Counted from the first letter of the stretch, positions 8,569 through 37,292 are shown. The stretch: DNA of 53,141 nucleotides from a virus (IMGVR_UViG_3300030389_000481:1-53141); one strand, 5' to 3'. The notes: generated by a model from the letters alone, not told the origin. Numbers and translations are program-made.

Positions 8569-9543
8569 ATGGCTCAATATTTTGAACCAAGTACCGATAC
8601 TAATGCTAACTTTGCAAACTCTGTAAGTGGACAGGCTAATAGTTTCTTCCTACCTTCCGTTTATTCTAAAAAGGTTTTAAACTTCTTTAGGAAAGCCTCG
8701 GTAGCAGAAGCTATAACAAACACCGACTATGCTGGTGAAATATCTGCTTACGGAGACTCTGTAAAGATTATTAAAGAACCAGTTATCTCTGTGTCTGATT
8801 ACACAAGAGGTAGCGATACAACTGCAACTAAGTTGACTGACCAAGAATTAACATTGGTTGTTGATAGTGCAAAAGCTTTCAAATTCATCGTAGATGATAT
8901 TGAAACTAACATGTCACATGTAAACTTTAAAGAGGTAGCATCTTCAAGTGCTGCATATGCTCTTAAAGATTCATATGATGCTGCTATCATCGCTAATATG
9001 TTTTCTGGTTTATCTTCTAGTTCACCTGACCATGTCATAGGTTCTGATTCAGCTACTGCTGATGCAACTATGACACACGCAACAAATTCTGTTGACTTGT
9101 TAGGTTCAGATGGAACTGGAGTAGACCCATTAGACTTAATGGCAAGAATGGCAAGATTACTTGATGACCAAAATGTTCCAGAAGAAGGAAGATGGTTCCT
9201 AGCTGGACCAGATTTCTATGAGCAACTAGGAAAATCAGGTTCTAAATTATTGTCAGTAGACTTTAACGCAGGTCAAGGTTCTATTAGAAATGGCTTAGTA
9301 TCTAGTGGTAAACTAAGAGGATTTGATATGTACAAATCTAACAATATCGCTGCAGTATCAAATGCAAGTGGTAAAGTGTTAGCTGGACATATAAGTTCAA
9401 CTGCAACTGCAAACACTATCCTTTCAACAGAAGTTATCAGAGACCCAAGTTCTTTTGGTGACATCGTGAGAGGTCTTCATGTCTATGGCTCTAAAGTCTT
9501 AAGACCAGAAGCGTTAGTAGGTGCATTCTATGTTATCGACTAA
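8569..9543 (+). CDS. Major capsid protein
   Basis: P22/T7-type coat motifs (GDSVKI, LDDQNVP..GR, GLHVYGSKV); followed by a terminator. Confidence 0.9.
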   Translation: MAQYFEPSTDTNANFANSVSGQANSFFLPSVYSKKVLNFFRKASVAEAITNTDYAGEISAYGDSVKIIKEPVISVSDYTRGSDTTATKLTDQELTLVVDSAKAFKFIVDDIETNMSHVNFKEVASSSAAYALKDSYDAAIIANMFSGLSSSSPDHVIGSDSATADATMTHATNSVDLLGSDGTGVDPLDLMARMARLLDDQNVPEEGRWFLAGPDFYEQLGKSGSKLLSVDFNAGQGSIRNGLVSSGKLRGFDMYKSNNIAAVSNASGKVLAGHISSTATANTILSTEVIRDPSSFGDIVRGLHVYGSKVLRPEALVGAFYVID

Positions 9544-9553
9544 TATATAACTC

Positions 9554-9581
9554 GGAGGGGTCTTCGGACCCTTCCACTTTT
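9554..9581 (+). terminator. Rho-independent terminator after capsid
   Basis: GGAGGGGTC-TTCG-GACCCTTCC followed by ACTTTT. Confidence 0.8.
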
Positions 9582-9594
9582 AAAAGGAAAAAAA

Positions 9595-9756
9595 ATGTAT
9601 CACGGAAAAAAGAAAATGATGGGTGGTGGCATGGCTCGTAAAAAGAAAATGGGTGGTGGCATGATGGCTCGTAAAAAGAAAATGGGTGGAGGCAAAATGA
9701 AAAGAACTATGTATGGACATGGTGGAGAAGTAATGCCTAAAGCTAAACCTTGTTAA
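9595..9756 (+). CDS. 53-aa basic peptide with RKKKMGGG repeats
   Basis: MYHGKKKMMGGGMARKKKMGGGMMARKKKMGGGK...; AAGGA upstream; below ORF-track cutoff. Confidence 0.7.
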   Translation: MYHGKKKMMGGGMARKKKMGGGMMARKKKMGGGKMKRTMYGHGGEVMPKAKPC

Positions 9757-9757
9757 T

Positions 9758-9904
9758 ATGAAAGTAAAAGCACCCAAAGGCTACCATTGGATGAAACAAC
9801 CCAAAGGTGGTTTTAAATTAATGAAACATAAAGGCAAGTTTGTAAAGCACAAAGGTGCTAGTTTAACAGCAAACTTTGCTATACAAAAAGTACACAAAAA
9901 ATAA
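9758..9904 (+). CDS. 48-aa basic protein
   Basis: MKVKAPKGYHWMK...; stop overlaps next ATG. Confidence 0.65.
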   Translation: MKVKAPKGYHWMKQPKGGFKLMKHKGKFVKHKGASLTANFAIQKVHKK

Positions 9905-10677
9905 TGGCAACAACATATTTAGATTTAACAAACGAACTTCTAAGAGAGTTAAACGAAATACCTTTAACTACTGCAAACTTTAGTAATGCAATAGGATTTC
10001 AAGCATTTGTAAAAGATGCAATAAATAAATCTATATCTGATATAGCCAATGAAGAACCTCAATTACCTTTTTTTGCTGTTGCAGCTAGTGGAGGCACAGA
10101 CCCATTTTATGGTAATGTAACTGTTGCTACAGTAGCAGGTCAAAGATGGTATACTTTGAAAGATGGTAGCTCTAGTATAACTACAGACTATTCATCTATC
10201 GATTGGGATGATTTTTATTTAACAACAATAAATGTATCTGGAGAAACTACTCCATTTGTTTCTAAAGGTTTAAAATTTTTAACACTTGCAGATTGGAGAA
10301 GATATAACAGAGATAGTGAAAATGCAGATGATGCAGAAGGTTCTGATGCTTCGCATGGTGAACCTATATGTGTAATAAGAAGTCCAGATAATAGAAAGTT
10401 TGGATTAAGTCCAATACCAGATAAAGTTTATAATGTGCATTTTTATGCATATGAAAAACCTACAGCATTATCAGCTCATAGCGACACAATAGTTTTACCA
10501 GACCAATATGCTAATGTTATAACAGCAAGAACTAGATACTATGTATGGCAATTTAAAGAAAGTCCACAACAAGCAGCTTTTGCTTTAGAAGATTATAAAA
10601 AAGGTATGAGACAAATGAAATCTAATTTAATAAATCCTCAACCTAAATATATGTCAGATGACAGGACTTATTATTAA
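9904..10677 (+). CDS. Head-tail adaptor / tail tubular protein A-like
   Basis: TYLDLTNELLRELNE N-terminus; position after capsid. Confidence 0.7.
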   Translation: MATTYLDLTNELLRELNEIPLTTANFSNAIGFQAFVKDAINKSISDIANEEPQLPFFAVAASGGTDPFYGNVTVATVAGQRWYTLKDGSSSITTDYSSIDWDDFYLTTINVSGETTPFVSKGLKFLTLADWRRYNRDSENADDAEGSDASHGEPICVIRSPDNRKFGLSPIPDKVYNVHFYAYEKPTALSAHSDTIVLPDQYANVITARTRYYVWQFKESPQQAAFALEDYKKGMRQMKSNLINPQPKYMSDDRTYY

Positions 10678-12284
10678 TGGCAAGAGGTCAACCATATACA
10701 GTAGCTTGTGAAGGAGGTTTGGTTACAGCTTCAAACCAAATAGATTTACTAAGAAGTCCGGGAGTAGCTACAGCATTACAAAACTTTGAAGTATCTGTAG
10801 AAGGTGGATACAGAAGAATAAATGGATATACAAAGTTTGGTGGTTCTAGTGCTACAAGACCTACTGGAGGAGAAGCTAGAATATTAGGTGTTGTTCCTTA
10901 TGGTGATGGTGTAATAGCTTGTGCAGGTACAAGTATTTATTTTAGTCTTGATGGAATAACTTGGATAGAAATAAATAGAAGTTCTGTATCTAGTAGTGGT
11001 GATAACTTTTCTACTTTTACAGGTAGAAGTGTTTTAACAAGAACTAATCAAGGACAAGTACAGTTTACTTTATTTGAAGGTGCTGCATTCCAATATGGAC
11101 AAATAATTATAGCAGATGGTGCTAATAAACCTTATTTGTTTAGAATGGAAGGTTCAGGTTCTTTATCATCTAGAACATTTTTTGCAGAAGAAATAACTGT
11201 AAGTGGAACTAAAGGTGTAAGTTTTATTACTCACCATGATAGACATTTAGTAGCTGCAGGTGTAGAAGATAATTTAACTACTGTATTTTTTAGTGCATTA
11301 TTAGACCCTACAGACTTTAGTGGTTCAGGTTCAGGTGCTGTAACTATAACTGACCAAGTAGTAGGATTAGCTTCTTTTAGGGCTGACTTATTTATATTTT
11401 GTAAAAATAGTATTCATAAACTTACAAATATAAATACACCTAGTCAAACTGCAGTTGTTCCAGTAGCAGAAAGTGTAGGATGTTTAAGTGGACACAGTAT
11501 TCAAGAGATAGCTGGTGACTTAATATTTTTAGCACCAGATGGAATGAGAACTATCGCTGGTACAGCAAGAATTGGCGATATTGAATTAGGAACTGTTAGT
11601 AAAAAAGTACAACCATTATTTACAACACTAGCTAAAAATATAAATCAATTTGAAATATCTAGTGTAGTAATAAGAGAAAAGTCACAATACAGACTTTTTT
11701 ATACAAATTTAAGTTTAGGTGAAAATGCACAACGAGGCATTATAGGAACTTTAAGACCAAATGGATTTGAGTGGTCTGAAATAAAAGGCTTAGAAGTTAC
11801 AGCAGTAGGCTCTGACTTTGATGCGACAAAAGTAGAAAGATATTTTCATGGTTCAAAAACTGGTTTTATATATAATCATGATACAGGAGATACTTTTGAT
11901 GGTACAGCAATAGCTGCAAGATATAAAACACCAGATTATGATTATGGTGATTTAGGAACATTAAAAACTTTGCATTACTGTAAAGTATCTATTGGAGGAG
12001 AAGGGGAAGTTTCTCCAGAATTACAAGTTAAGTTTGAGTATTCAAATCAAAACATACCTCAACATACAAGTAATTTTAGTTTCGGAACAGTTAGCCCTGC
12101 TGCTATATTTGGAGAAGCAGTATTTGGTTCTAATGTTTTTGGAGCAGTTGTAAACCCCATGGTTAGAATACCATTACAAGGAAGTGGAACTAGTAATAGT
12201 TTTACAGTAGTTAGTAATGATACTAAACCACCTTATAAAATAAATGGATTGTATGTAGATTACATACCATCAGGCAGGAGATAA
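10677..12284 (+). CDS. Tail nozzle / tubular protein B-like
   Basis: Beta-rich 535 aa with GC.S..SIQE..GDLIFLAPDG motif; position. Confidence 0.7.
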   Translation: MARGQPYTVACEGGLVTASNQIDLLRSPGVATALQNFEVSVEGGYRRINGYTKFGGSSATRPTGGEARILGVVPYGDGVIACAGTSIYFSLDGITWIEINRSSVSSSGDNFSTFTGRSVLTRTNQGQVQFTLFEGAAFQYGQIIIADGANKPYLFRMEGSGSLSSRTFFAEEITVSGTKGVSFITHHDRHLVAAGVEDNLTTVFFSALLDPTDFSGSGSGAVTITDQVVGLASFRADLFIFCKNSIHKLTNINTPSQTAVVPVAESVGCLSGHSIQEIAGDLIFLAPDGMRTIAGTARIGDIELGTVSKKVQPLFTTLAKNINQFEISSVVIREKSQYRLFYTNLSLGENAQRGIIGTLRPNGFEWSEIKGLEVTAVGSDFDATKVERYFHGSKTGFIYNHDTGDTFDGTAIAARYKTPDYDYGDLGTLKTLHYCKVSIGGEGEVSPELQVKFEYSNQNIPQHTSNFSFGTVSPAAIFGEAVFGSNVFGAVVNPMVRIPLQGSGTSNSFTVVSNDTKPPYKINGLYVDYIPSGRR

Positions 12285-12290
12285 AAAGAA

Positions 12291-15200
12291 ATGGCAACAT
12301 ATACAAGACAAAGTTCATTTGTTGATGGTGACAGCATAACTGCTGCTATCTTTAATGATGAATTTAACCAATTAGTTAATGCTTTTAATGTAAGCACAGG
12401 GCATTCACATGATGGAACTACAGCAGGTGATGGTGGTCCTATCTCTGTATTATTTAGTAATACAATTACTATAGGTAAGAATGAAGATACAGATATTGCT
12501 TTAACATTTAATGCATCATCAAATGATGGTGTATTAACATGGATGGAGGATGAAGATTACTTTTTATTCTCTGATGATATATTAATTAATAGCACAGAAA
12601 AATTACAATTTAGAGACACAGCAATTTATTTAAACTCTAGTGCTGATGGGCAACTAGATATAGTAGCTGATACAGAAATACAACTAGCTGCAACTACAAT
12701 AGATATAAATGGTGCAGTAGATATTTCAGGAGCTTTAACATTAGCTGGTGTTTCATTAGCAGAAACCATTTCTGATACTGTAGGAGCTATGGTAAGTTCT
12801 AATACAGAAACAGGAATTACAGTTACTTATGATGATAATGATAATACATTAGACTTTGTAATCGGAACATTAAACCAAGATACTACAGGAAATGCTGCAA
12901 CTGCCACAGCATTAGAAACTGCTAGAACTATTCATGGTGTAAGTTTTGATGGTACTGCTAATATTGATTTATCAGAAGTTATTCAAGATACTGTAGGAGC
13001 TATGCTATCAAGTAATACTGAATCAGGTATTACAGTTACATATCAAGATGGTGATGGAACTATAGACTTTACTGTAGCTTCACAAACAGATGAAAACTTT
13101 ACAACTGCTGACCATGCAAAACTAGATGGTATAGAAGCTAATGCAACTGCCGACCAAACTGCAGCAGAGATAAGAACATTGGTAGATAGTGCTAGTGATT
13201 CAAATGTTTTCACAGATGCAGACCACACAAAACTAGATGGTATAGAAACTAGTGCTACTGCAGACCAGACTGCTGCTGAAATAAGAACATTAGTAGAATC
13301 AGCAAGTGATTCAAATGTATTTACAGATGCAGACCATACAAAATTAAATGCAATAGAAGCTGGAGCTACTGCAGACCAAACAGATGAAGAAATACAAGAT
13401 GTTGTTGGAGCTATGTTTAGTGGTAATACAGAAACAGGTATTACAGCAACATATCAAGATAGTGATGGAACTATAGACTTAGTAGTAGGAACTCTTAATC
13501 AAGATACTACAGGTAATGCAGCAACAGCTACAGCATTAGAAACTGCAAGAACAATTAATGGTGTAAGCTTTGATGGTACTGGAAATATTACAACACTTAC
13601 TGCAGGTACAGGAGTATCTGTATCAGGTACAGAAGTATCTATAGGACAATCAGTAGCAACAAATGCAGATGCTAATTTTGCTACAGTTACAACTACAGGT
13701 AATACAATAGTAGGTGGTAATCTTACAGTAAATGGAACTACAACAACTTTAAATACTGCAACACTAGATGTTGAAGATAAAAACATTACACTTAACAAAG
13801 GTTCAGGAGATACATCTGGTTCAGCAGATGGAGCTGGATTTACAATTCAAGATGCAGTAGATGCATCGAATGATGCAACATTAACATGGAGTGCAGCTAA
13901 TGATAACTTTGTGTTTTCACATGAAATAGTTGCTCCAAGTTTAGATATATCAGGTAATGTAGATATTGATGGTACATTAGAAACAGATGCATTAACTATT
14001 AATGGTACAGCATCAGTTCCTTTTGAAGCTGCAGACCATACTAAGTTAGATGGTATAGAAACAAATGCTACTGCAGACCAAACAGCAGCAGAGATTAGGA
14101 CATTAGTAGAATCAGCAAGTGACTCTAATGTCTTTACAGATGCTGACCACAGCAAACTAAATGCTATAGAAGCTAGTGCTGATGTAACAGATACAACAAA
14201 TGTTACTGCTGCAGGTGCATTAATGGATAGTGAACTTGCAAGTATTGCAGATGTAAAAGCATTAGACCAGTCAGTAGTAAGTGGAGCATCTCCAACATTT
14301 AGTACAACTAATTTTACTGATGCATCTAATAAAAGATTAATGACTGATGCTCAAGAAACAAAACTTGATTCAGTTGAGAGTGGTGCAACAGCAGACCAAA
14401 CTGCAGCAGAAATTAGAACATTAGTTGAAGCAGCAACAGACTCTAATGTGTTTACTGATGCAGACCACACTAAACTAAATGCAATAGAATCAAATGCTAC
14501 AGGAGACCAAACTGCTAGTGAAATAAAAAGTTTATATGAAGGTAATTCAGATACAAATGCATTTACTGATGCAGATGAAAGTAAGTTAGATGGTATAGAA
14601 GCAAGTGCTGATGTTACAGATTCAACAAATGTAGGAACTGCACTAACAGGATTTAGTACAGCTACAGATGCTGTAAGTTCAGACTTAGTTCCATTTTATG
14701 ATGTAACAGCAGGAGCATGGGAAAAATCTACAGTAGCTAATTTAGCTTTACAAGGACCAACAGGACCTACTGGACCAACTGGACCAACTGGACCGACAGG
14801 ACCTCAAGGTAATACTGGACCAACAGGACCAACAGGTTCTAAAGGACAAAAAGGTGAAGTAGGCTCAACTGGACCTACAGGACCTTCAGGTTCAGATGGA
14901 AATGATGGTTCTACAGGACCAACAGGACCTACAGGACCTACTGGACCTACTGGACCAACTGGGTCTAAAGGACAAAAAGGTGAAGTGGGAGCAGGAGGAC
15001 CTACAGGTGGAACAGGACCTACCGGACCTACCGGACCAACAGGACCTGCAGGTAATGCTTCAGATGGTACTAAAGGACAAAAAGGACAAAAAGGTGAAGT
15101 TGGTAGTACAGGACCTACAGGTGGCACAGGTCCAACAGGACCAGCAGGACCAACAGGTTCAACAGGTGGCACAGGACCAACAGGGTCTAAAGGACAAAAA

Positions 15201-16811
15201 GGTGAGGTTGGTTCAACAGGACCGACTGGACCTACTGGAGGCACCGGACCTACAGGACCTACAGGACCAACAGGTTCAACAGGTACAGGTATTACAATGG
15301 AAGGACAAGTTGCTACAACAGGTGACTTACCTTCAAGTGGTAATACAAAAGGTGATGCTTACATAGTACAAGCAGATGATAGTTTACATATCTTTGATGG
15401 TAGTAACTTTGTAAGTGGTGGTTCTATTCAAGGACCAACAGGACCTACAGGACCTACTGGTGGTACAGGACCTACCGGACCTACAGGTAATACAGGACCT
15501 ACTGGACCTACTGGTTCAAAAGGACAGAAAGGTGAAGTTGGTGGAACAGGACCTACAGGTAATACAGGACCTACAGGTGGAACAGGACCTACTGGACCTA
15601 CAGGACCTACTGGACCAGCAGGTGATGATGGTAGTAATGGTTCTAAAGGACAGAAAGGACAAAAAGGTGAAGTTGGTTCTACAGGACCCACAGGTGGAAC
15701 TGGACCAACAGGACCTACAGGACCCGGTGGTTCAACTGGTGGAACAGGACCTACTGGTCAGAAAGGACAAAAAGGTGAAGTTGGTGCTACAGGACCCGGA
15801 GGTTCTACTGGACCAGCAGGACCAGCAGGACCTGCAGGACCTAGTGGTGGTACAGGACCAACAGGTGGAACTGGACCTACTGGTTCAAAAGGACAGAAAG
15901 GTGAAGTTGGTGCTGGAGGACCTACTGGACCTACTGGACCCGGAGGAGGTACAGGACCTACAGGACCTACTGGACCTAGTGGTGGAACAGGACCGACTGG
16001 TTCTAAAGGACAAAAAGGTGAAGTAGGTGGTACAGGACCTACTGGACCAGCAGGTGGTACAGGACCTACAGGTAGTACTGGACCTACAGGACCCGGAGGT
16101 AGTACTGGTCAAAAAGGACAAAAGGGTCAAAAAGGTGCTACAGGTAGTACAGGACCTTCAGGACCTACTGGTTCAACAGGACCTACAGGTAGTACAGGAC
16201 CAAGTGGTGGTACAGGACCTACAGGTCAAAAAGGACAAAAAGGTCAAACTGGTTCAACAGGTGGTACAGGACCTTCAGGTGGTACAGGACCAACTGGACC
16301 AACTGGACCTACAGGACCAACTGGACCTACCGGACCTAGTGGTGGATTTACAACTGGTTCAAACGCAGAAGTAAATAGTTTAGGTGTTAATGTTACCAAT
16401 AGTGGATTTACAAATGGTGAGATTAGAGCATCTAATAATATTACAGCTTTCTACTCTGATGAAAGATTAAAAGACTTTGAAGGTACTATACCTAATGCTT
16501 TAGAAAAAGTAGTTCAGTTAGGTGGTTATTACTTTAGAGAAAATGAAGTAGCAAAAGGACTTGGTTATGAAAACGACAAACGACAAGTTGGTGTTTCAGC
16601 TCAAGAAGTACAAGCAGTATTACCAGAAGTAGTAACAGCAGCACCTATTGATGATAAATATTTAACAGTATGGTATGACAAGTTAGTACCATTATTAATA
16701 GAAGCTATAAAAGAATTAGCAGTAAACTCTCATGAACCTAAATGTTTAGAAGATATGGAAGGTTATGCTGATTTAATTGCAAGAATAGAGGAGCTAGAAA
16801 ACGATGGCTAA
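12291..16811 (+). CDS. Tail fibre with internal repeats, long collagen domain and C-terminal S74-like chaperone
   Basis: EFNQL..AF...GH.HDG attachment domain, G-X-Y repeats, YSDERLK...[12 protein letters not shown]...LIEAIKEL. Confidence 0.9.
14753..16343 (+). repeat. Collagen-coding GGACCWACW repeat tract
   Basis: GPT triplets punctuated by KGQKGE; interrupted once at about 15290-15430. Confidence 0.95.
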
Positions 16812-16983
16812 TATGCAAACAGTACATGTATTAAAAACTAATAGTGAAAGTGACCAACAACCAGTAGCTATTATAACTTATGATGATGATACACAAACTT
16901 TTTGGAATAAAGATAGTGATAGAAGTGTTTTAGATACTCATACAAAGTCTATATTAGATGCATTTTTTAATGGAATAAGTTAA
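16804..16983 (+). CDS. Hypothetical protein (59 aa)
   Basis: [11 protein letters not shown]...; overlaps both neighbours. Confidence 0.6.
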
Positions 16984-17720
16984 TGGCAATAAGTGGAGCA
17001 GGGCAACAAAAATCATTCTCAGATTTACAAACTGAGTTTGGTGGTTCGCATCCTATAACTATGGGTGAGTATGCTTCTTTTAGAGTATCAGGTTCTGGTA
17101 ATACTATTGACATGGATGACTTTGCAGGTGCAGTAGCATTTACTTGGGATAATCCAGCAGTAGATTTAGATTTACCTAACAATGCTTTAGTATCTACAGG
17201 AAGTTCATCAGGTACTGCTTTAGGTATAGCTGTTATAGGTGTAGCTTTTCAACCAGCAGATAATAGAGTTAGATTTAGATATGGTAAAGGAACTCAAAGT
17301 GCAGCAATAACTTATAATTATTTAAATTTAGATTATACTGGTACTGACCCTGACCAAGTAGAGATGCAATTAAACTGGACAGCATCTACATCAGGTACTG
17401 GTACTTTTAGTAATGCTACCGGTTTTACATCTGGTAATTGGAGTACTATACAAAAACAAACTACCAGTAGTGATTCTGGTTTATTTACAGCAGCAACTTG
17501 GTCAGCTCAAAAAAGTTCATCACAAGGATTTGGAACTGCTGCTTTAGATGCAGGAGCTTTTGCTGGTACTGCTTTAACATTTGCATTTAGAGCAAAAGAC
17601 TCAAGTGGTAATGTCATAGCCACCTCTAGTACTAGTAATAGTGAAACTGTTTATGTTTCTGCTTCAAGAAGTGGCTTCGGTGGTGGAGGTGGAGGTGGAG
17701 GTGGAGGCTTCGAGCCTTAA
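16983..17720 (+). CDS. Putative fibre tip / adhesin
   Basis: SFSDLQTEFGGSHPI.M.EY N-terminus seen after S74 fibres; S/T/G-rich; poly-Gly tail. Confidence 0.55.
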   Translation: MAISGAGQQKSFSDLQTEFGGSHPITMGEYASFRVSGSGNTIDMDDFAGAVAFTWDNPAVDLDLPNNALVSTGSSSGTALGIAVIGVAFQPADNRVRFRYGKGTQSAAITYNYLNLDYTGTDPDQVEMQLNWTASTSGTGTFSNATGFTSGNWSTIQKQTTSSDSGLFTAATWSAQKSSSQGFGTAALDAGAFAGTALTFAFRAKDSSGNVIATSSTSNSETVYVSASRSGFGGGGGGGGGGFEP

Positions 17721-17728
17721 ACCGAAAC

Positions 17729-17757
17729 TTGACAAGACTTATATAAAATATTATAAT
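17729..17757 (+). promoter_or_regulatory. Consensus sigma70 promoter
   Basis: TTGACA-17 bp-TATAAT. Confidence 0.85.
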
Positions 17758-17774
17758 ACTATTAGGGGTGAAGC

Positions 17775-19610
17775 ATGAAGAAATTAGTAATAAGTTTAAA
17801 AAGAAGACAAGATAGAAAAGTAGAATTTAAAAAAAATAATTTAAAAGATTTTAAATATTTAGAAGCTATAGATTATAAAACTTTAAATAATAAAAATTTT
17901 AAAGTTGATGAAAATTTTAAAGACCCTTTTCTAAATAGACAAACTTTAAAAAGTGAAGTAGCTTGTTTTTTATCTCATAAAAAAGCATGGGAAGAATGTC
18001 TAAGACTTTATGAACCTGTAATTATTTTAGAAGATGATGCAGTTATAAATGATACATGGGATGAAGAATACTATGAAAAGTTACTAGAAGATTATGAGTT
18101 TATTTATCTTCAAAGAAACGAAAATGAACCTGATAAGGTTGTAAGTATAGATGATAGAATAGAAAAACCATCTTACCCTTACAATTTAACAGGATATGTT
18201 ATAGAACCTACAACTGCTACAAAGTTATTACACAATTATAAAGAAATAATACCAGTTGATGAATACATACCTCGGTTAATTAAAAAAGGTCAAATAGATG
18301 CTGTAGCTTTGAAACATGATGCATGTAATCAGTTACCAAGAAGCATAAGCGAGAGTGATATAGAAAATAATAAAACAGCTAGAAACTTTACTGTACATCC
18401 AATTACAGTAGGTTCAGATAGGCTGAAATGTGTTAAGTTAAACACAAGTGCTAGAAAACATGGTATTGAAGTAAAAAACTTAGGTACTAATGTAGAATGG
18501 AAAGGAACAGATATGTCTGGTCCGGGTGGTGGAATGAAAGCCAACCTACTAAGAGATTATGTAAATACTCTACCAGACAATGATGTAGTTTTATTTACAG
18601 ATGCATACGATGTATTTTATGCAGATAATTTAGAAACTATAACTGAAAGATATTTAGACTTTAATACTAAAGCAGTTTTTTCAGCAGAGTTATATTGTTA
18701 TCCTGATGCTAGTATAGCAAATGAGTTTCCAGAATCTAATACACCTTATAGGTATTTGAATAGTGGAACATTTATAGCTCAAGTAGGAGAACTAAAAAAA
18801 ATGTTTGCTTCTTCTACTGTAGCTGATGATGGTGATGACCAACTGTATTATCAGAAGTTATTACTAAGTAATGAGTTTGATATGACTTTGGATTATGAAG
18901 GTTATATTTTTCAAACACATGAAGAAGCAACAGGTATAAATAGTTCAGGACAACTTTATAATCCTAGAACAAATTGTTGTGCTTGTATTTATCATGGTAA
19001 TGGTGGAGACAATACTAAAGATAAATTTAATGCTTTATACAATGTCTTTCATCCTAGAACTGATTATTATTTTAGTCCTAGTAATTCATATGACATTATA
19101 GAAGATGATATGTTAGTAGCTGACTTTATGACTCAAGAACAATGTGAAAGACTTATTGAGTTAGCTGATAAGAATGGAAACTGGGATAGTTTAAAATATG
19201 ATAAGTTTCCAGCACAAGAAATAAGAATAAAAGAATTAGGTTTGTGGACAGAGTTAGAAGCTAAGTGGAATGAATTTATAGTTCCAATACTAGAAAAATA
19301 TTGGAAGCCTACAGAGATGTATGGTTTAAGAGATGCATTCGTAATGCGATATAATTTAGATACACAAAAAGATTTACCTTTACATACTGATGCAAGTTTA
19401 GTAACAGGAAGTGTAAAGTTAAATGATGATTATGAAGGAGCTGATTTATTTTATCCTAGACAAAATATCAGCAACAAAGATATACCAGTAGGAAAAATAC
19501 TTTTATTTCCCGGTATGGTAACACACGGACATGAGTGCTTACCTTTAACAAAAGGAACAAAATATAGTTTTACTATCTGGTCTAATAGATTTCCCGGAGA
19601 TAACATATAA
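17775..19610 (+). CDS. GT25 glycosyltransferase + PLOD-type glycosyltransferase + 2OG-Fe(II) lysyl-hydroxylase-like fusion
   Basis: EVACFLSH/ILEDD (GT25); GGGMK, FTDAYD, YLNSG, DDQLYY, HGNG (PLOD GT); FVMRY, LPLHTDAS, THGHE (LH). Confidence 0.85.
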   Translation: MKKLVISLKRRQDRKVEFKKNNLKDFKYLEAIDYKTLNNKNFKVDENFKDPFLNRQTLKSEVACFLSHKKAWEECLRLYEPVIILEDDAVINDTWDEEYYEKLLEDYEFIYLQRNENEPDKVVSIDDRIEKPSYPYNLTGYVIEPTTATKLLHNYKEIIPVDEYIPRLIKKGQIDAVALKHDACNQLPRSISESDIENNKTARNFTVHPITVGSDRLKCVKLNTSARKHGIEVKNLGTNVEWKGTDMSGPGGGMKANLLRDYVNTLPDNDVVLFTDAYDVFYADNLETITERYLDFNTKAVFSAELYCYPDASIANEFPESNTPYRYLNSGTFIAQVGELKKMFASSTVADDGDDQLYYQKLLLSNEFDMTLDYEGYIFQTHEEATGINSSGQLYNPRTNCCACIYHGNGGDNTKDKFNALYNVFHPRTDYYFSPSNSYDIIEDDMLVADFMTQEQCERLIELADKNGNWDSLKYDKFPAQEIRIKELGLWTELEAKWNEFIVPILEKYWKPTEMYGLRDAFVMRYNLDTQKDLPLHTDASLVTGSVKLNDDYEGADLFYPRQNISNKDIPVGKILLFPGMVTHGHECLPLTKGTKYSFTIWSNRFPGDNI

Positions 19611-32215: not shown

Positions 32216-32565
32216 TGCAAGAAGTAGTAACCATTATTCAACAAGTAGGCTTTCCTATTGCAGCAGCTTTAGGATTAGGTTGGTTTATATATAAACTTAT
32301 CATGCGTATTGTTGATGGTATGGAAACTAAGTTAGAAACTTTAGATGATAAAGTTCAAACATCTTTAGATACTATGGAAGAAAGAGTGACTACAAAACTT
32401 GATAGTCAGTATGGAATTATTGTTGCTTTAATTGATAGAGTAAGAGCTTTAGATAATCAAAGTATCAGACAAGATGTATTATTAAAAACATTATTAGGTG
32501 TACCTAACCTAATAGATATAGATAAAATAGCAAAGGCAGATAGAGATGACCAAAGAAAAGATTGA
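32215..32565 (+). CDS. Membrane protein with coiled coil
   Basis: QVGFPIA...TM helix. Confidence 0.55.
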   Translation: MQEVVTIIQQVGFPIAAALGLGWFIYKLIMRIVDGMETKLETLDDKVQTSLDTMEERVTTKLDSQYGIIVALIDRVRALDNQSIRQDVLLKTLLGVPNLIDIDKIAKADRDDQRKD

Positions 32566-33061
32566 TATAGAAAACATGCACCCAATGAAGCAAATTACTA
32601 TTGCTTCTTTTATACAAATAAGTATGTTTGGATTTATGTTACTAAGTTTTTTAGTAATAAATCAATTAACTGCAGATGAAATAGTATTTAAATTTAAGAG
32701 CCCTAGTTTTAGTGGAGAAGGAACCTCTGCTCATTACCTTACAATAGAAAATCAAGAGTATACTCGTAAGATGACTATTAAAGAAGAACTAAAAGCTTTA
32801 CAAGACCAAATAGAAAGAGACAAAGAAAATACAACACTAGCAAGATTTATAAGAAACTTAGAATCTAGAATATATGCACAATTATCAAGGCAACTTGTAG
32901 AAAATTTATTTGGTGAGAATCCTAGTACAAGTGGCATACTAGAATTAGAAGGTAATACTATTGAATATAGTATTGAAGATGGAATTATAACTTTAACAAT
33001 TACAGATAGCGATGGGAATCAAACAGTTATTCAGTTGCCTATTGGTGATTTTTCTTTCTAG
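32546..33061 (+). CDS. csgF: CsgF-like curli assembly protein
   Basis: Signal peptide, EIVFKFKSPSFSG, F..NLESRIYAQLS. Confidence 0.75.
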   Translation: MTKEKIDIENMHPMKQITIASFIQISMFGFMLLSFLVINQLTADEIVFKFKSPSFSGEGTSAHYLTIENQEYTRKMTIKEELKALQDQIERDKENTTLARFIRNLESRIYAQLSRQLVENLFGENPSTSGILELEGNTIEYSIEDGIITLTITDSDGNQTVIQLPIGDFSF

Positions 33062-33866
33062 TTGTGCAGTATTATCTAAGAACACAGACTTAGTATTATC
33101 ACAAGATATAGAAACACCAAAGGTACTAAACTTACAGTCAGAAGAATTATTAAACTTACCACCGGCAGAACACAGACCTGTCATTGCAGTATATGCTAAT
33201 AGTTTTCAAGACTTAACAGGACAAAGAAAAAGCAATAGCAGTTTTGCTATGTTTAGTACAGCAGTTACTCAAGCTCCAGAAGCATTACTTATAAGAGCTT
33301 TGAAACATGCTGCAAATGGTAAATTTTTTAGAGTTGTTGAGAGGGTGGGTTTAGAAAACCTTACCAAAGAAAGACAGCTCATTCGTTCAACCAGAGAAAA
33401 TTTTGAAGAAGACCAAAAACTTCAACCATTATTATTCGCAGGAATAATAGTACAGGGTGGAGTAATAGGGTACGACACAAATATAGAATCTGGTGGTATA
33501 GGTGCTAGGTACTTAGGAATAGGTAATAGTACTGTATACCGAGAAGACATAGTAACTATATCATTAAGATTAGTTTCTGTGGCAACTGGTGAGATATTAT
33601 TAGAGACTACTGTTTCTAAAAATATTTTATCAACAAGCATTTCTCAAGACATCTTTCGTTATATAGAAGCTGGTACTGAACTAGTGGAAATAGAGGGTGG
33701 TGTTGCAGAGAATGAAGCCGGTTCTATAGCTTTGCAAAAGGCAATAGAAGCCGGTGTTTTAGACTTAATAAAACTAGGAATAGAGAGAGGATATTGGAAA
33801 TATGAAAACATTAAAATTGATGAGCCTTGTGATGTTGATGCTGAGTGTATCGATATACGGGGATGA
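33012..33866 (+). CDS. csgG: CsgG-like outer-membrane secretion lipoprotein
   Basis: Lipobox LSSC; F.DLTGQRK, STAVTQ, VERVGL..L.KERQLIR, GGIGARYLGIG. Confidence 0.9.
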   Translation: MGIKQLFSCLLVIFLSSCAVLSKNTDLVLSQDIETPKVLNLQSEELLNLPPAEHRPVIAVYANSFQDLTGQRKSNSSFAMFSTAVTQAPEALLIRALKHAANGKFFRVVERVGLENLTKERQLIRSTRENFEEDQKLQPLLFAGIIVQGGVIGYDTNIESGGIGARYLGIGNSTVYREDIVTISLRLVSVATGEILLETTVSKNILSTSISQDIFRYIEAGTELVEIEGGVAENEAGSIALQKAIEAGVLDLIKLGIERGYWKYENIKIDEPCDVDAECIDIRG

Positions 33867-34518
33867 CAACGAAATTTATATTGACCAGTCAGGAGATACA
33901 GCTAATATAGATATGGAACAATTAGGTTCCGGAAATATTATTGGTGGTCTCGATTCTACTGCAGGTAGTTTAACTGCATTTGATTTAGATGGAGATAATT
34001 TAACTCTAACATTAAATCAAATTGGAGATAGTAATACTTTTCTTGGTGACATACTAGGAGATAATATTACTGGATACTTTAACTTTGATGGTAATTCAAA
34101 TGCGTTCACTATTCAAGTTGACCCTACTAATACATATGGAGCAGATAGTTCAAACTTTAATGTTCAAGCTACAGGCGATAGTAATACATTTAGTTTAGAT
34201 GTAGCTACTAATGCTATGGCTAGTAATACAGACTTAGATTGGATTATCAATGGTAGTAGTAACACATTAACATTTGATATAGATGTTGATGGTGCTACTT
34301 CATATCTAGATATAGATGGGGATAGTAATACTGTAACTTATGATGGTGATGGATATGCTAATGGTTATTTTTATTTAGACCAAACAGGCAACTCTAGAAC
34401 TTTCAATATTCAACAACAAAGTACATTAGCAAGTGACTGGCTCAAGATTATTTCAAATGGCAATTCTGGTACTCTGTGTATTATCCAAGATGATAATGGC
34501 ACAGCAGTCGGATGTTAG
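33802..34518 (+). CDS. Secreted curlin-like repeat protein
   Basis: Signal peptide; Q-x-G-x-x-N and G.SN repeats; D/N/G/S/T-rich. Confidence 0.65.
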   Translation: MKTLKLMSLVMLMLSVSIYGDDNEIYIDQSGDTANIDMEQLGSGNIIGGLDSTAGSLTAFDLDGDNLTLTLNQIGDSNTFLGDILGDNITGYFNFDGNSNAFTIQVDPTNTYGADSSNFNVQATGDSNTFSLDVATNAMASNTDLDWIINGSSNTLTFDIDVDGATSYLDIDGDSNTVTYDGDGYANGYFYLDQTGNSRTFNIQQQSTLASDWLKIISNGNSGTLCIIQDDNGTAVGC

Positions 34519-35542
34519 TATTGGTAACATAACAGAATTAAAAGGACAGGGCAGGATTGTAAGGGATAAACCTTATGATGCTGCCTTATCTTTTGATATA
34601 GAAAGTTTTGATAATGTTGAAACTTCCAATGGAAGACTAGGTATAACCTTTTTAAATAATAGTCAGGTAAGGTTAACCGAACATTCTAAACTTGTCATAG
34701 ATGAATTTATCTACGACCCTAATCCTTCTAAGTCTAAAATGACTTTACAGTTTGCAAGTGGTACTGCAAGATTTATTACTGGTAAACTAAATAATATAAA
34801 TAAAGAGAACATTGCTATAACTACGCCAAGTGCCAATGTTTCAATTAGAGGCACGGACTTTACTTTAACAGTAAATGAGTTAGGAGAATCTCTTATAATA
34901 TTATTACCTAAAGCAGATGGAACTCCTAGTGGAGAGATATTAGTTGCGACTGCTGCAGGTGAAGTAATATTAAATCAACCATATCAGGCTACAACAGTTT
35001 CTATGTTTGAAGTAGAACCTACTAAGCCGGTCATATTAGACATTACCTTAGAGTTAATTGATAATATGTTAATTGTAAATCCACCAGAGGAGAATATAAA
35101 TGTTAGTGAGCAGGGAGTGTCCTCCAGTAGTAGTAATATACTTGATGTTGATTATCTTGAATTTGAAGACCTCGACATCGATTACTTATCAGGAGATGAA
35201 TTAGAATTTACAGAACTAGATATTAATTATTTAGATGTAAACTTTTTGGAAGACTTGTTAGATATTATTCAAGATGTTAATGAGTTAGACCAAACAGAAA
35301 CTTTATTAAGTGCAGAGCTAGATTTAAAAGGAACTACATTTGGATTTGACCAAGACACTCAAGTAAATACTTTTACTACAGATAGTGTCTTAACTTTTGT
35401 AAGAGCTTTAGAAAATACAGTTAGACTTGATTTAGATAAGTCAGGAGCTTACACAGTTATTCTTATACAGAATGGAAAGAGCACACAGATAGTAGTGAAT
35501 GGTGGAGGTTCATCTACAATAACAATTAAACAAGGTGGTTAA
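34433..35542 (+). CDS. FecR-domain periplasmic protein
   Basis: Signal peptide; VET.NG...I.F...S.V.L.E.S.L.ID; TP.A...IRGTDF; acidic repeat tail. Confidence 0.75.
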   Translation: MTGSRLFQMAILVLCVLSKMIMAQQSDVSIGNITELKGQGRIVRDKPYDAALSFDIESFDNVETSNGRLGITFLNNSQVRLTEHSKLVIDEFIYDPNPSKSKMTLQFASGTARFITGKLNNINKENIAITTPSANVSIRGTDFTLTVNELGESLIILLPKADGTPSGEILVATAAGEVILNQPYQATTVSMFEVEPTKPVILDITLELIDNMLIVNPPEENINVSEQGVSSSSSNILDVDYLEFEDLDIDYLSGDELEFTELDINYLDVNFLEDLLDIIQDVNELDQTETLLSAELDLKGTTFGFDQDTQVNTFTTDSVLTFVRALENTVRLDLDKSGAYTVILIQNGKSTQIVVNGGGSSTITIKQGG

Positions 35543-37292
35543 TATGAAATGGGCTAGTATATTATTAGGATTACTTACATTACCTCTTATCTTTAACTTC
35601 GCACCTCTTGAAGTTATGAGATTAAAAACTTTTGATGCTTTGGTGACAACACCAGAACCATCTGGATATTTTACAATTCTTAATATTACAGAAGAAGATG
35701 TACAACTTAGAGGTGGCTATCCTTTTCCTAGACAAGACTTAGCTAGTATTCATATTGATTTACTAAACGAAGGAGCAATGGGTGTAGGCTGGGTAATATT
35801 ATTTCCACAAGAAGATAGATTTGGTGGCGATAAAATATTCTCTGATGTATTAGGATATGCTCCCAGCGTATTAGCTATGCCAGAGTTTGACAATGGTATG
35901 TATCCAGAAACTCATGGTACTGTAATACTTGGACCGGATATAGAGTTACCAAAAGCAAAAGGATTTTTACAAAACATACCTGAACTAAGAAAGTCTGCTT
36001 CTCAAGGTGCTGTATCTGCTCCTGTAGATATAGATAATCTTGTAAGAAGATTACCATTATTACAACAAACTCCTGATGGTTGGGTTGCTGCTTTCGGTAC
36101 AGAAGTTTTAAAAACTTTAGCCGATGCTAATACTTATCAGATAAAAACAAATGAGAATGGTATTGAGATGATAAGAGTAAGAGGTCTTGAACCAATATCA
36201 ACAGATAGTCTTGGTCGTAAATGGATTAGTTGGGTAGACACACCACAGACTACATTAGAAGAAATGAATGTTGCAGGTAAGTTTGTATTTGTAGGTGTTA
36301 CTGCAGAGGGGGTAATGCCAACTTTAGCCACACCAAATGGGCTATTAGAGCCTCACAAGATACAGGCTGCCCTTGCAGAAAGTATTTTGATTGACTCTCC
36401 TTTCATACCTGACTATAGATTATTTGTAGAACTATTATTATTATGCGTATCAGGATTGCTCGTAGCATTCATTATAAATTACTTTGGTATAACATGGGGA
36501 TTATCATTAACAGGTATCTCGATATTATCGATGGGTGGACTCGGTTATTATTTTATATCGCTAGGTTATTTAATTGATGTAACATGGAGTATGACATGTA
36601 TGACACTTATGTCATTACAACAATTCTACTTACGCTTTAGACAACAATACAAACTAAGACAACTAATCAAAAAACAATTTGAGCATTACCTAGACCCAAG
36701 ACAAGTAAAACAATTACAAGAAAATCCTGAACTGTTAAAGTTAGGTGGTGAAAGAAAAGAATGCACCATCCTCTTTACTGATGTTAGAGGTTTCACTTCT
36801 TTATCAGAACGACTTCCACCAGAACAAGTAACAGACTTAATGAATAAAACATTAACCATACAAGCAAATGCAGTTAAGAAGTATGGAGGTATGGTTGATA
36901 AATATATTGGTGATGCAATGATGGCAATATTTAATGCACCTATAGATATTGATATGCATGAAGACAGAGCAATACTTGCAGCAATAGAAATAAAGAAAGA
37001 AATGGAAGAAGCAAACTTAGGTATTCAAATTGGTATAGGAATCAATTCGGGAATCGTGATGTTAGGTAACTGTGGTTCAGAAGATAGGTTTGATTATACT
37101 GCTATAGGTGATGCAGTTAATCTTGCAGCAAGACTTGAAAGCTCTACTAAGGAAGTAGGTGAAGATATTGTGATAGGATATAACACTATGAAGAACAGCG
37201 ACATGCAATTAAAACTACTAAAACCTATCAAAGTTAAGGGAAAAGAACATAAAGTAGCAATATACACAGTAAATCCAGCAGAATATTCGTAA
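35535..37292 (+). CDS. CHASE2-domain class III adenylate cyclase
   Basis: CHASE2 (YPFPR, D.D..VRR.PL), TM helices, FTDVRGFT, DKYIGDA, YTAIGDAVNLAARLE. Confidence 0.9.
   Translation: MVNMKWASILLGLLTLPLIFNFAPLEVMRLKTFDALVTTPEPSGYFTILNITEEDVQLRGGYPFPRQDLASIHIDLLNEGAMGVGWVILFPQEDRFGGDKIFSDVLGYAPSVLAMPEFDNGMYPETHGTVILGPDIELPKAKGFLQNIPELRKSASQGAVSAPVDIDNLVRRLPLLQQTPDGWVAAFGTEVLKTLADANTYQIKTNENGIEMIRVRGLEPISTDSLGRKWISWVDTPQTTLEEMNVAGKFVFVGVTAEGVMPTLATPNGLLEPHKIQAALAESILIDSPFIPDYRLFVELLLLCVSGLLVAFIINYFGITWGLSLTGISILSMGGLGYYFISLGYLIDVTWSMTCMTLMSLQQFYLRFRQQYKLRQLIKKQFEHYLDPRQVKQLQENPELLKLGGERKECTILFTDVRGFTSLSERLPPEQVTDLMNKTLTIQANAVKKYGGMVDKYIGDAMMAIFNAPIDIDMHEDRAILAAIEIKKEMEEANLGIQIGIGINSGIVMLGNCGSEDRFDYTAIGDAVNLAARLESSTKEVGEDIVIGYNTMKNSDMQLKLLKPIKVKGKEHKVAIYTVNPAEYS

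Follow-up and report, generated by a model that had tools for sequence, protein, structure and literature searches.

A marine tailed phage probably sugar-coats its own collagen-like tail fibre, a reading based on homology and gene context. The window, a 53 141 nt stretch representing a 53 kb podovirus-type genome related to Pelagibacter phages, encodes a fibre with lysine-bearing Gly-X-Y repeats and, two genes on, a 611 aa protein. There are good grounds to regard this protein as a cytoplasmic, self-contained enzyme that would hydroxylate the Y-position lysines of the fibre and then add a hexose or dihexose via two glycosyltransferase (GT) domains. The original prediction had proposed a fibre-decorating enzyme in one polypeptide, and domain content, invariant residues and co-occurrence all lend support to that reading, the chemistry being predicted from sequence.

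The tail-fibre gene (12291-16811, + strand; 1506 aa) matched PHROG tail-fibre families (best 8.5e-78) and is preceded by an SU10-type adaptor gene (9904-10677) and a gene (10677-12284) matching PHROG virion and connector families. From N to C terminus, its product comprises a repeat-rich shaft, a collagen region and an S74 chaperone domain. The approximately 500 aa of Gly-X-Y repeats first noticed in the sequence were counted as 161 uninterrupted triplets (483 aa) in three runs, all on the + strand: 34 triplets at aa 822-923 (14754-15059), 25 at aa 926-1000 (15066-15290) and 102 at aa 1048-1353 (15432-16349). The Pfam Collagen family (PF01391) scored 146 bits against a cut-off of 27 (2.4e-43). 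Proline was the commonest residue in X (79 positions), Y was chiefly occupied by threonine (99 of 161) or lysine (25), and all 25 collagen lysines fell in Y with none in X. The recurring GSKGQKGE motif with lysine in Y, also part of the original prediction, was found in six copies alongside three of GQKGQKGE, and KGQKGE clusters recurred through the third run with a period of approximately 108-126 nt. The Peptidase_S74 intramolecular chaperone domain (PF13884; aa 1389-1448, 16455-16634, + strand; 2.4e-11, 44 bits against a cut-off of 22) is likely, going by the known role of such domains, to be the trimerisation nucleus of the fibre. The fibre thus has the long unbroken Gly-X-Y runs and C-terminal S74 chaperone of a collagen protein, and a triple helix is predicted.

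The enzyme gene (17775-19610, + strand) matched phrog_61 over its full length (1.3e-111), and Pfam, profile and fold matches agreed on the three domains initially proposed for its product. The N-terminal domain (aa 2-165, 17778-18269) is a Glyco_transf_25 (GT25) domain (PF01755; 9.4e-21, 75 bits against a cut-off of 24) resembling the GT2 domain of COLGALT1; the middle domain (aa 210-424, 18402-19046) is a PLOD-type GT (GT_PLOD, PF25342; 7.2e-48, 163.4 bits against a cut-off of 27); and the C-terminal domain (aa ~440-604, 19092-19586) is a lysyl-hydroxylase (LH)-type 2-oxoglutarate/Fe(II) oxygenase assigned through matches to LH3 and L230, all three on the + strand. As single sequences, the GT25 domain matched COLGALT1 (1.5e-11), the middle domain matched mimivirus R699 (8e-26), and the C-terminal ~170 aa matched the LH domain of human LH3 (1e-9) and mimivirus L230 (4e-8). 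A profile of 44 enzyme relatives, sharing 26-83 % identity with the window's protein, identified among solved structures LH3 (3e-83, with LH3 domain 2 at 2e-26), R699 (3e-50), COLGALT1 (2e-44), the L230 LH domain (1e-24) and R655 (8e-19); the next oxygenase after the LH types was PiuC, at only 5e-5. The comparison with LH3 and COLGALT1 suggested as a structural check gave a concordant result, with Foldseek ranking LH3 first (8e-29) for the AlphaFold (AF2) model of the enzyme (pLDDT 92.5, pTM 0.85). The PLOD-type GT domain of the model aligned to the LH3 GT domain 6wfv (TM 0.85, rmsd 2.2 Å) and to R699 (rmsd 2.5 Å), the GT25 domain to COLGALT1 (rmsd 2.8 Å over 231 columns), and the LH domain, a double-stranded beta-helix fold nearest to solved LH domains, to L230-LH 6ax6_B (TM 0.76, rmsd 2.1 Å over 170 columns). 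By sequence and by modelled fold, the best solved relative of each of the three domains is a collagen lysine-modifying enzyme. Only ~15 residues separate the end of GT_PLOD (aa 424) from the start of the LH match (~aa 440), and the LH3-type accessory (AC) domain between GT and LH is absent from the 611 aa enzyme, which is a compact variant without the full GT-AC-LH architecture of LH3 or L230. Since no signal peptide is evident and the first strand of the model starts at residue 2, the enzyme is likely to reside in the cytoplasm and not in an endoplasmic reticulum (ER).

Catalytic residues were mapped through alignments to LH3, COLGALT1 and L230, with residue roles taken from the available portions of PMC6082870 and PMC12003778. 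In the GT25 domain, E86 and D88 were present in all 44 relatives and D87 in 43; these align to the F-E-D-D of COLGALT1, whose EDD is described as Mn-binding in the accessible text of PMC12003778. In the PLOD-type domain (D276-x-Y278-D279), D276, D279 and H407 (44/44) correspond to LH3 D112, D115 and H253, which form a non-canonical DxxD plus His Mn site, whilst W242 (43/44) and Y278 (Y in 39, F in four and H in one of 44) correspond to the UDP clamp residues W75 and Y114, and D354 and D355 (44/44) to D190/D191. Y309 lies at the position of the LH3 gating residue W145, which is W in 36 and Y in eight of the 44 relatives. The oxygenase domain carries H537-x-D539 and H586 (44/44) at the positions of LH3 H667, D669 and H719, the HxD...H Fe(II) triad, and K596 at the position of R729, the residue that salt-bridges 2-oxoglutarate in LH3; this position was always basic (K in 38, R in six). 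The lysine at 596 and the tyrosine at 309 are departures from LH3 that count against the proposed activity. The roles given for LH3 residues are those in the available extract of PMC6082870.

The same three catalytic modules occur in the human pair LH3/PLOD3 and COLGALT1/GLT25D1 (PDB 6fxk, 8zgc, 9evj), namely an LH with HxD...H, a PLOD GT with DxxD plus His, a Trp/Tyr clamp and a DD pair, and a GT25 with EDD, and human and phage collagens alike carry lysine in Y of Gly-X-Y. The human modules are divided between two proteins, which form a complex in animals according to the available part of PMC11897130, whereas the phage fuses them into a single protein that runs GT25, PLOD-GT, LH, lacks both the accessory domain of LH3 and the structural GT1 domain of COLGALT1, and has K596 for R729 and Y309 for W145. 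L230 of Acanthamoeba polyphaga mimivirus (895 aa; LH PDB 6ax6/9nev) is, as described in the accessible portions of PMC9614988 and PMC9546862, likewise a viral single polypeptide with a GT25/GLT25D1-like N-terminal GT bearing E-D-D and a C-terminal collagen LH; its substrates are collagen-like proteins of mimivirus itself, and expression in E. coli yields active enzyme. The phage enzyme differs from L230 in its shorter length (611 aa), presumably in the PLOD-GT running into the LH without an LH3-type accessory domain, in its bacterial host and in its proposed substrate, a tail fibre. R699 (PDB 9dyt), which glucosylates Gal-Hyl (PMC9546862, available text), and the GT25-like R655 (PDB 9crz) are matched with the profile by the middle and N-terminal phage domains, respectively, but are separate mimivirus genes, whereas their phage counterparts are fused.

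From these parallels we infer the substrate, order of steps, pre-folding timing and sugars of the following scheme. The C-terminal Fe(II)/2-oxoglutarate domain would hydroxylate Y-position lysines of the G-x-K-G-Q-K-G-E clusters, probably on unfolded chains ahead of triple-helix zipping by the C-terminal S74 domain. The two Mn-dependent GT-A domains would then place sugar on the new hydroxyl, with the first hexose coming from the GT25/COLGALT-like domain and the second from the PLOD/R699-like domain, leaving a hexose or dihexose on hydroxylysine (Hyl). The likely benefit would be a hydrated fibre with greater stability or resistance to proteases, or else a fibre that binds differently. By analogy with the animal pathway, the product may be Glc-Gal-Hyl. 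However, the available text of PMC9614988 reports that L230 adds Glc to Hyl and that its GT25-like domain performs the transfer; as this domain transfers Glc and not Gal, homology is no guide to the sugars used by the phage. L230 is also the closest characterised multi-domain relative, and its Glc-Hyl product favours a reading that we consider unlikely, albeit the strongest competitor, in which the fibre lysines are hydroxylated and receive one sugar only (e.g. Glc-Hyl), the other GT domain being structural, redundant or aimed elsewhere. The N-terminal GT domain of COLGALT1 is now purely structural (PMC12003778, available portion), and two-domain forms exist within the family, comprising either GT_PLOD and LH (~417 aa) or GT25 and GT_PLOD (~430-460 aa). 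Nevertheless, both GT domains keep their metal and donor residues in 44/44 or 43/44 relatives, down to 26 % identity, which would be unexpected for a decayed domain.

The enzyme had been placed just downstream of the fibre, and it does lie two genes on, but the next gene is a 245 aa ORF (16983-17720, + strand) for which Pfam and PHROG searches returned no family match. The N-terminal ~50 aa of this ORF are kept among relatives, the C-termini of which differ, and it terminates in a Gly10 run; it may encode another fibre or receptor-binding protein of modular build. A sigma-70-type consensus, TTGACA-17-TATAAT (17729-17757, + strand; 12/12 matches), constitutes a candidate promoter ending 18 nt 5' of the enzyme start codon; the consensus was matched at 12/12 positions in loci L001, L002 and L010 and at 11/12 in L003 and L020, with differing spacers.

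The co-occurrence check suggested in the original prediction gave a positive result, the enzyme going together with lysine-in-Y collagen both in phage lineages unrelated to one another and in an unselected control. Among 79 IMG/VR loci retained out of 112 relatives, 36 of the 38 whose upstream sequence exceeded 3.5 kb had a collagen ORF (at least 12 triplets) on the same strand upstream of the enzyme, although many of these loci are near-duplicates and the co-occurrence counts here and below are not phylogenetically independent. Exceptions were L058, in which 4.5 kb of upstream sequence held no collagen ORF, and L052, with a run of 10 triplets only. Lysine made up 15-77 % of Y in collagens upstream of the enzyme and was never in X; the 46 distinct ORFs held 7488 triplets with 2237 lysines in Y, none in X and no arginine. 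In Roseobacter phage CRP-6 the order is fibre gp60 (26 Y-lysines in 99 triplets), gp59 and enzyme gp58, the T4-like cyanomyophages S-PRM1 and S-CAM9 pair the enzyme with collagens carrying 23 and 22 Y-lysines in 59 triplets, and two contigs from metagenome-assembled genomes (MAGs) show the same pairing. The intervening gene varies by lineage (the 245 aa ORF here, gp59 in CRP-6, two oxygenases in the cyanophages), and in three lineages the enzyme lies within the structural module beside fibre genes. Relatives found via the upstream gene, with 8-10 kb downstream known, comprised four with collagen and enzyme, which were the closest (79-83 % identity in the upstream gene), and four with neither, which were more distant (36-67 %). 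The cultured relative HTVC115P has a 753 aa fibre homologue without collagen and has no enzyme.

The unselected control consisted of 65 phage contigs from a scan for (GPT)4-type collagen, 39 of which were without any collagen lysine. Parts of the enzyme were present in three of five lysine-rich contigs vs none of 60 lysine-poor contigs (Fisher p = 2.3e-4). In the lysine-poor contigs lysine occurred in X (27) as well as Y (63). One phage record (198 kb, rated 97 % complete), with 26 lysines and 21 arginines in Y of 198 triplets, had no match to the enzyme, the LH domain or PF25342, and the enzyme was also absent from a second (279 kb, 66 % complete).

The 97 %-complete phage, with its Lys/Arg-in-Y collagen and no enzyme, is what would be expected if Y-lysines served K-G-E salt bridges in a Hyp-free helix and the enzyme rode in a mobile structural cassette, acting on another protein such as the 245 aa ORF or a host protein. 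Lysine in Y followed by Glu (K-G-E) stabilises Hyp-free triple helices, therefore the Y bias of lysine needs no enzyme as explanation, and nine of the 25 collagen lysines of the fibre occur in GQKGE. We nonetheless judge this improbable: the gene between fibre and enzyme changes with lineage whilst the constant partner is a lysine-in-Y collagen, and the lysine share of Y beside the enzyme contrasts with just 0.85 % in the 60 lysine-poor control contigs. Moreover, C5 hydroxylation leaves the amino group free, so that salt-bridge and modification roles can coexist.

The collagen pairing, seen in 36/38 loci, in other lineages and in the control (3/5 vs 0/60), argues against threonine, lipopolysaccharide (LPS) or DNA as the target. 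O-glycosylation of the threonines of GPT repeats, offered as the alternative acceptor in the original prediction, has a precedent in Bacillus BclA and would suit the abundance of threonine in Y of this fibre. It is disfavoured, and we give it very little credence, because none of the 60 lysine-poor (GPT)4 collagen contigs had GT25 or GT_PLOD matches, the collagens beside the enzyme in L077/L078 have 54 lysines and one threonine in 70 Y positions, and the fused hydroxylase would be left without a role. Least credible of all is a host- or DNA-directed auxiliary gene, for LPS remodelling or for base hydroxylation and glycosylation in the manner of JBP/TET plus a GT: GT25 is named for LPS biosynthesis, relatives bear the database label 'GR25 family glycosyltransferase involved in LPS biosynthesis' and PHROG 61 is categorized as 'moron, auxiliary metabolic gene', but the gene sits in the structural module, the best sequence and fold matches of the oxygenase domain are LH3 and L230 and not nucleic-acid oxygenases, the GT25 domain is far nearer to COLGALT1 (2e-44) than to the solved bacterial GT25 8xlz (only 2e-15) with the same profile, and L230 and R655 were formerly mis-annotated likewise (PMC9546862, available text).

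One library contained 706 members of the enzyme family at E ≤ 1e-3 and another 199 clusters at 50 % identity (E ≤ 1e-30), and the family is essentially viral; only four MAG contigs matched the enzyme among the species genomes scanned, the scan using two peptide patterns. Library proteins of ~900 aa combine GT25 with a complete LH3-like GT-AC-LH, for example the 907 aa P0171, which aligns to LH3 residues covering AC plus LH. The preprint on the closest cultured pelagiphages (10.1101/2019.12.14.876532) places phage groups containing the family with the most abundant ones of marine viromes and never mentions collagen, and full-text literature searches found no report of collagen lysine hydroxylation or glycosylation in bacteriophages. 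This chemistry is documented in animals and mimivirus (L230, R699).

If the predicted chemistry of fibre-lysine hydroxylation and glycosylation is real, models of the host-recognition fibres of major marine phages would change, a post-translational layer would be added to phage-host specificity and virion stability, and producers of modified recombinant collagen would gain a compact enzyme that bacteria express naturally. More tentatively, SAR11-type podoviruses, roseophages and cyanomyophages may make animal-style glycosylated hydroxylysine, possibly Glc-Gal-Hyl, on their collagen tail fibres while these are still in the cytoplasm of the bacterium, by means of a minimal 611 aa three-activity enzyme without ER, accessory domain or partner. 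Were this three-activity reading true, the enzyme would provide a one-gene tool for glycosylated recombinant collagen in bacteria, and collagen lysine glycosylation would be widespread among the virions of the ocean.

The tail-fibre gene (12291-16811, + strand; 1506 aa) matched many PHROG tail-fibre families (best E-value 8.5e-78) and is preceded by an adaptor gene (9904-10677) and, between the two, a gene with matches to PHROG virion and connector families (10677-12284). The fibre contains 161 uninterrupted Gly-X-Y triplets in three runs at aa 822-923, 926-1000 and 1048-1353, in which X is mainly Pro (79) and Y mainly Thr (99) or Lys (25). All 25 Lys residues within these runs occupy Y and none occupies X, with GSKGQKGE present six times and GQKGQKGE three times, and the Lys clusters display a higher-order period of approximately 108-126 nt. 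The original prediction of about 500 aa of G-X-Y repeats carrying GSKGQKGE, with Lys in Y, was therefore accurate. A Peptidase_S74 intramolecular-chaperone domain is located at fibre aa 1389-1448; this family is typical of trimeric fibres. The N-terminal shaft of the fibre displayed a separate repeat structure, consisting of 37-aa (111-nt) units of the type [13 protein letters not shown]...[12 protein letters not shown] at 13098-13394 (+), with further copies within aa 270-800.

The three-domain enzyme had been described as lying just downstream of the fibre; its domains were upheld, but its gene (17775-19610, + strand; 611 aa) is the second downstream rather than the first. The protein matched PHROG 61 over its full length (1.3e-111), and Pfam identified Glyco_transf_25 (enzyme aa 2-165) and GT_PLOD (aa 210-424), each exceeding its cut-off by a wide margin. 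As a single sequence searched against solved structures, it matched human LH3 in two stretches (GT, 4e-22; lysyl hydroxylase [LH], 1e-8), mimivirus R699 (8e-26), COLGALT1 (1e-10) and the LH domain of mimivirus L230 (2e-7). A profile of 44 relatives matched LH3 (3e-83), R699 (3e-50), COLGALT1 (2e-44), L230 LH (1e-24) and mimivirus R655 (8e-19); solved bacterial GT25 enzymes reached no better than 2e-15, and the next oxygenase, PiuC, merely 5e-5. An AlphaFold2 model (mean pLDDT 92.5, pTM 0.85) was compared to known folds with Foldseek, and the best matches of each domain were collagen lysine-modifying enzymes: the LH3 GT domain (6wfv; TM 0.85, rmsd 2.2 Å), R699 (rmsd 2.5 Å), COLGALT1 (rmsd 2.8 Å over 231 columns) and the L230 LH domain (TM 0.76, rmsd 2.1 Å). 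The predicted kinship with LH3 and COLGALT1 thus held at the level of fold for all three domains. With its first beta-strand beginning at residue 2, the model gives no sign of a signal peptide. Public records label members of this family 'hypothetical', '2OG-Fe(II) oxygenase' or 'GR25 ... LPS biosynthesis'.

Catalytic residues were mapped by HMMER alignments and their conservation assessed over 44 relatives with 26-83 % identity, utilizing residue roles given in PMC6082870 for LH3 and in PMC12003778 for the COLGALT1 EDD motif. In the GT25 domain, E86-D87-D88 corresponds to the Mn-binding EDD of COLGALT1 (E86 and D88 in 44/44, D87 in 43/44). The PLOD-type GT domain retains D276, D279 and H407, equivalent to the Mn ligands D112, D115 and H253 of LH3 (44/44 each), as well as D354-D355, equivalent to D190-D191 (44/44). 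The LH3 UDP-clamp residues W75 and Y114 are represented by W242 (43/44) and Y278 (Y in 39 of 44), and the gating residue W145 by Y309, a position occupied by W in 36 and Y in eight of the 44. In the LH domain, H537, D539 and H586 align with the Fe ligands H667, D669 and H719 (44/44 each), whilst K596 aligns with the 2OG-binding R729 (K in 38, R in six of 44). Given this conservation, all three modules look active.

The wider family comprised 706 proteins in one library and 199 clusters at E <= 1e-30 in another. Its forms included GT_PLOD plus oxygenase (LH; 417 aa), GT25 plus GT_PLOD (464 aa), double GT25 (two GT25 stretches with GT_PLOD and oxygenase; 942 aa), methyltransferase-added (methyltransferase, GT25 and GT_PLOD; 875 aa) and proteins of ~900-1190 aa with an LH3-like middle, a modularity illustrated by library proteins P0124, P0134, P0146, P0152, P0171 and P0185. 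Unlike LH3, the phage enzyme lacks the accessory (AC) domain, with just ~15 residues between the PLOD-GT and LH matches, whereas library proteins of ~900 aa, such as P0171, comprise GT25 followed by a complete LH3-like GT-AC-LH arrangement.

The gene between fibre and enzyme (16983-17720, + strand) encodes 245 aa with no family match. Its N-terminal module of ~50 aa is common to many proteins of 160-410 aa (66-94 % identity) that differ in their C-termini, and its own C-terminal end is a run of ten Gly; by these features it looks like a swappable receptor-binding protein. A perfect sigma-70-type promoter consensus (TTGACA-17-TATAAT; 17729-17757, + strand) was present 18 nt upstream of the enzyme start codon. 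Both hexamers were conserved ahead of the enzyme at 12/12 positions in loci L001, L002 and L010 and at 11/12 in L003 and L020, with diverging spacers. The promoter suggests a transcription start dedicated to the enzyme, which could thus be present before the fibre is made.

A scan of IMG/VR yielded 112 enzyme relatives, from which 79 loci were retained. Of the 38 loci in which more than 3.5 kb of sequence preceded the enzyme, 36 contained an upstream, same-strand ORF with 12 or more collagen triplets, at a distance of 0.6-4.7 kb. The exceptions among the 38 were L052, with a 1409-aa upstream ORF containing just a 10-triplet GDKGQKGAT run, and L058, with no collagen. In loci with shorter upstream DNA, the available stretch was mostly taken up by two to five ORFs of ~190-240 aa and so could not reach a fibre gene. 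Across 46 distinct collagen ORFs (7488 triplets), Lys occurred 2237 times in Y and never in X, and Arg was absent. The prevailing context was G-[S/A/D/Q]-K-G-Q-K-G-E-V, and Lys accounted for 15-77 % of Y positions per locus. Thr and Pro content varied widely, for example L077 and L078 contained 54 Lys, one Thr and no Pro in 70 triplets.

The pairing extended to other lineages. A tblastn search of 50 697 phage records identified the enzyme in 11: nine records of Synechococcus myophages, one of Roseobacter phage CRP-6 and one of a single-cell marine virus. In CRP-6, the small gp59 separates the 'tail fiber' gp60 (99 triplets, 26 Lys in Y) from the enzyme gp58. In S-PRM1 and S-CAM9, the enzyme is preceded, in this order, by a fibre of ~1830 aa with 59 triplets (23 and 22 Lys in Y, respectively), a small ORF and a pair of ~200-aa genes bearing 2OG-Fe(II) oxygenase annotations. 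Four MAG contigs carrying the enzyme were found with a 12-sequence alignment, and the same pairing was present in both of those with enough upstream DNA; a scan of genome contigs with the single enzyme protein returned no relative. In cyanomyophage loci L118 and L119, the two oxygenase-annotated genes between collagen fibre and enzyme occupy 8839-10004, and in many IMG/VR loci, L015, L039, L040 and L049 among them, the two to five ORFs of 190-240 aa lie 5' of the enzyme. Either set may encode further fibre-modifying enzymes.

Two controls were used. For the first, 37 loci were collected via the gene upstream of the fibre, and those with 8-10 kb of downstream sequence were compared. A Lys-in-Y collagen fibre and the enzyme occurred together in four (L082, L083, L084, L093), whereas in four others (L095, L104, L109, L115) the fibre homologue had no collagen and the enzyme was missing. 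The two sets of four also correspond to separate clades (upstream-gene identity of 79-83 % versus 36-67 %), so one gain or loss event may account for the contrast. In the cultured relative HTVC115P, the fibre homologue (753 aa) shares the N-terminus but contains no Gly-X-Y run, and the enzyme is absent. The second control was unselected, scanning IMG/VR for an IUPAC DNA pattern of (GPT)4G, and yielded 78 loci on 70 contigs, 65 of which had a collagen ORF. Lys was absent altogether from the collagen of 39 of these 65. Five contigs counted as Lys-rich, with 10 % or more of Y positions occupied by Lys; in the 60 Lys-poor contigs Lys made up 0.85 % of Y positions (63 in Y, 27 in X). Three of the five Lys-rich contigs carried the enzyme or GT portions of it (complete in L125, cut by contig ends in L143 and L127), compared with none of the 60 Lys-poor contigs (Fisher p = 2.3e-4). 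The remaining two Lys-rich contigs derive from large phages. One of them is locus L134, on a 198-kb record (G001) that is rated 97 % complete and had no match to the enzyme, its LH domain or PF25342; with its collagen (26 Lys and 21 Arg in Y over 198 triplets), it is an exception to the pairing. The other record is just 66 % complete. The association of enzyme and Lys-in-Y collagen is strong, but not absolute, and the co-occurrence that the original prediction proposed to check was borne out, with exceptions, in IMG/VR loci, CRP-6, cyanophages and the second control.

Salt bridges of the K-G-E type can account for the placement of Lys in Y, yet they leave unexplained why the enzyme accompanies collagens of this kind; one role does not preclude the other. 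The enzyme combines its domain identities and intact active sites with tight pairing to Lys-in-Y fibres across lineages, and the best explanation, which we consider probable, is that it modifies the collagen lysines of its own phage's fibre, in support of the earlier reading. The LH domain would act in the cytoplasm, on fibre chains not yet folded, and hydroxylate Y-position Lys at C5; the GT25 domain would add a first hexose and the PLOD/R699-type domain a second. The S74 domain would then nucleate trimerization, after which the helix would no longer be modifiable, as in animal collagen. The sugars cannot be named from homology: PMC9614988 describes transfer of Glc, not Gal, by the GT25-like domain of L230, and PMC9546862 glucosylation of Gal-Hyl by R699. 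The enzyme could instead attach just one sugar, leaving one of its GT domains idle, but this accords poorly with two GT sites that are both fully conserved. Thr of the GPT repeats, previously offered as an alternative acceptor, is contradicted by the control sample, in which no Lys-poor (GPT)4G contig carried the enzyme, and, like LPS and DNA as targets, which the same sample also contradicts, by gene position and domain affinities.

The window comprises an entire virus record of 53,141 bases. It carries its packaging and structural arm on the + strand and its replication arm on the - strand, with a portal and adaptor of the SU10 podovirus type. The portal gene shares 73-79 % DNA identity with Pelagibacter phages HTVC115P, HTVC104P, HTVC103P and HTVC033P, and DNA-level comparison of the window returned no other match at this level. 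Three of these isolates are placed in an 'HTVC103P-type' group of abundant marine podoviruses in 10.1101/2019.12.14.876532. Elsewhere, genes for a FecR-like protein and, after it, a fusion of a CHASE2 sensor with an adenylate/guanylate cyclase domain (34433-37292, +; 9e-24, 3e-20) have the look of a signalling pair carried by the phage. At 32546-33866 (+), the phage encodes homologues of CsgF (PF10614, 4e-19) and CsgG (PF03783, 1e-49), which are curli secretion proteins; curli genes have been reported in pelagiphages. A separate 195-aa 2OG-FeII_Oxy_3 oxygenase of prolyl-hydroxylase type (40708-41295, -) adjoins ribonucleotide reductase genes in the replication arm; the fibre is not an obvious prolyl-4-hydroxylase substrate because it has no Pro in Y positions.

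Hydroxylation and glycosylation of collagen lysines are already established for animals and mimivirus. Full-text literature searches returned no paper describing them in phages; the phage literature found dealt with prolyl hydroxylase as an auxiliary gene or with collagen repeats in fibres, and nothing further on the theme. The distinguishing features of the present case are the fusion of all three modules in a small podovirus-type genome and the control data.
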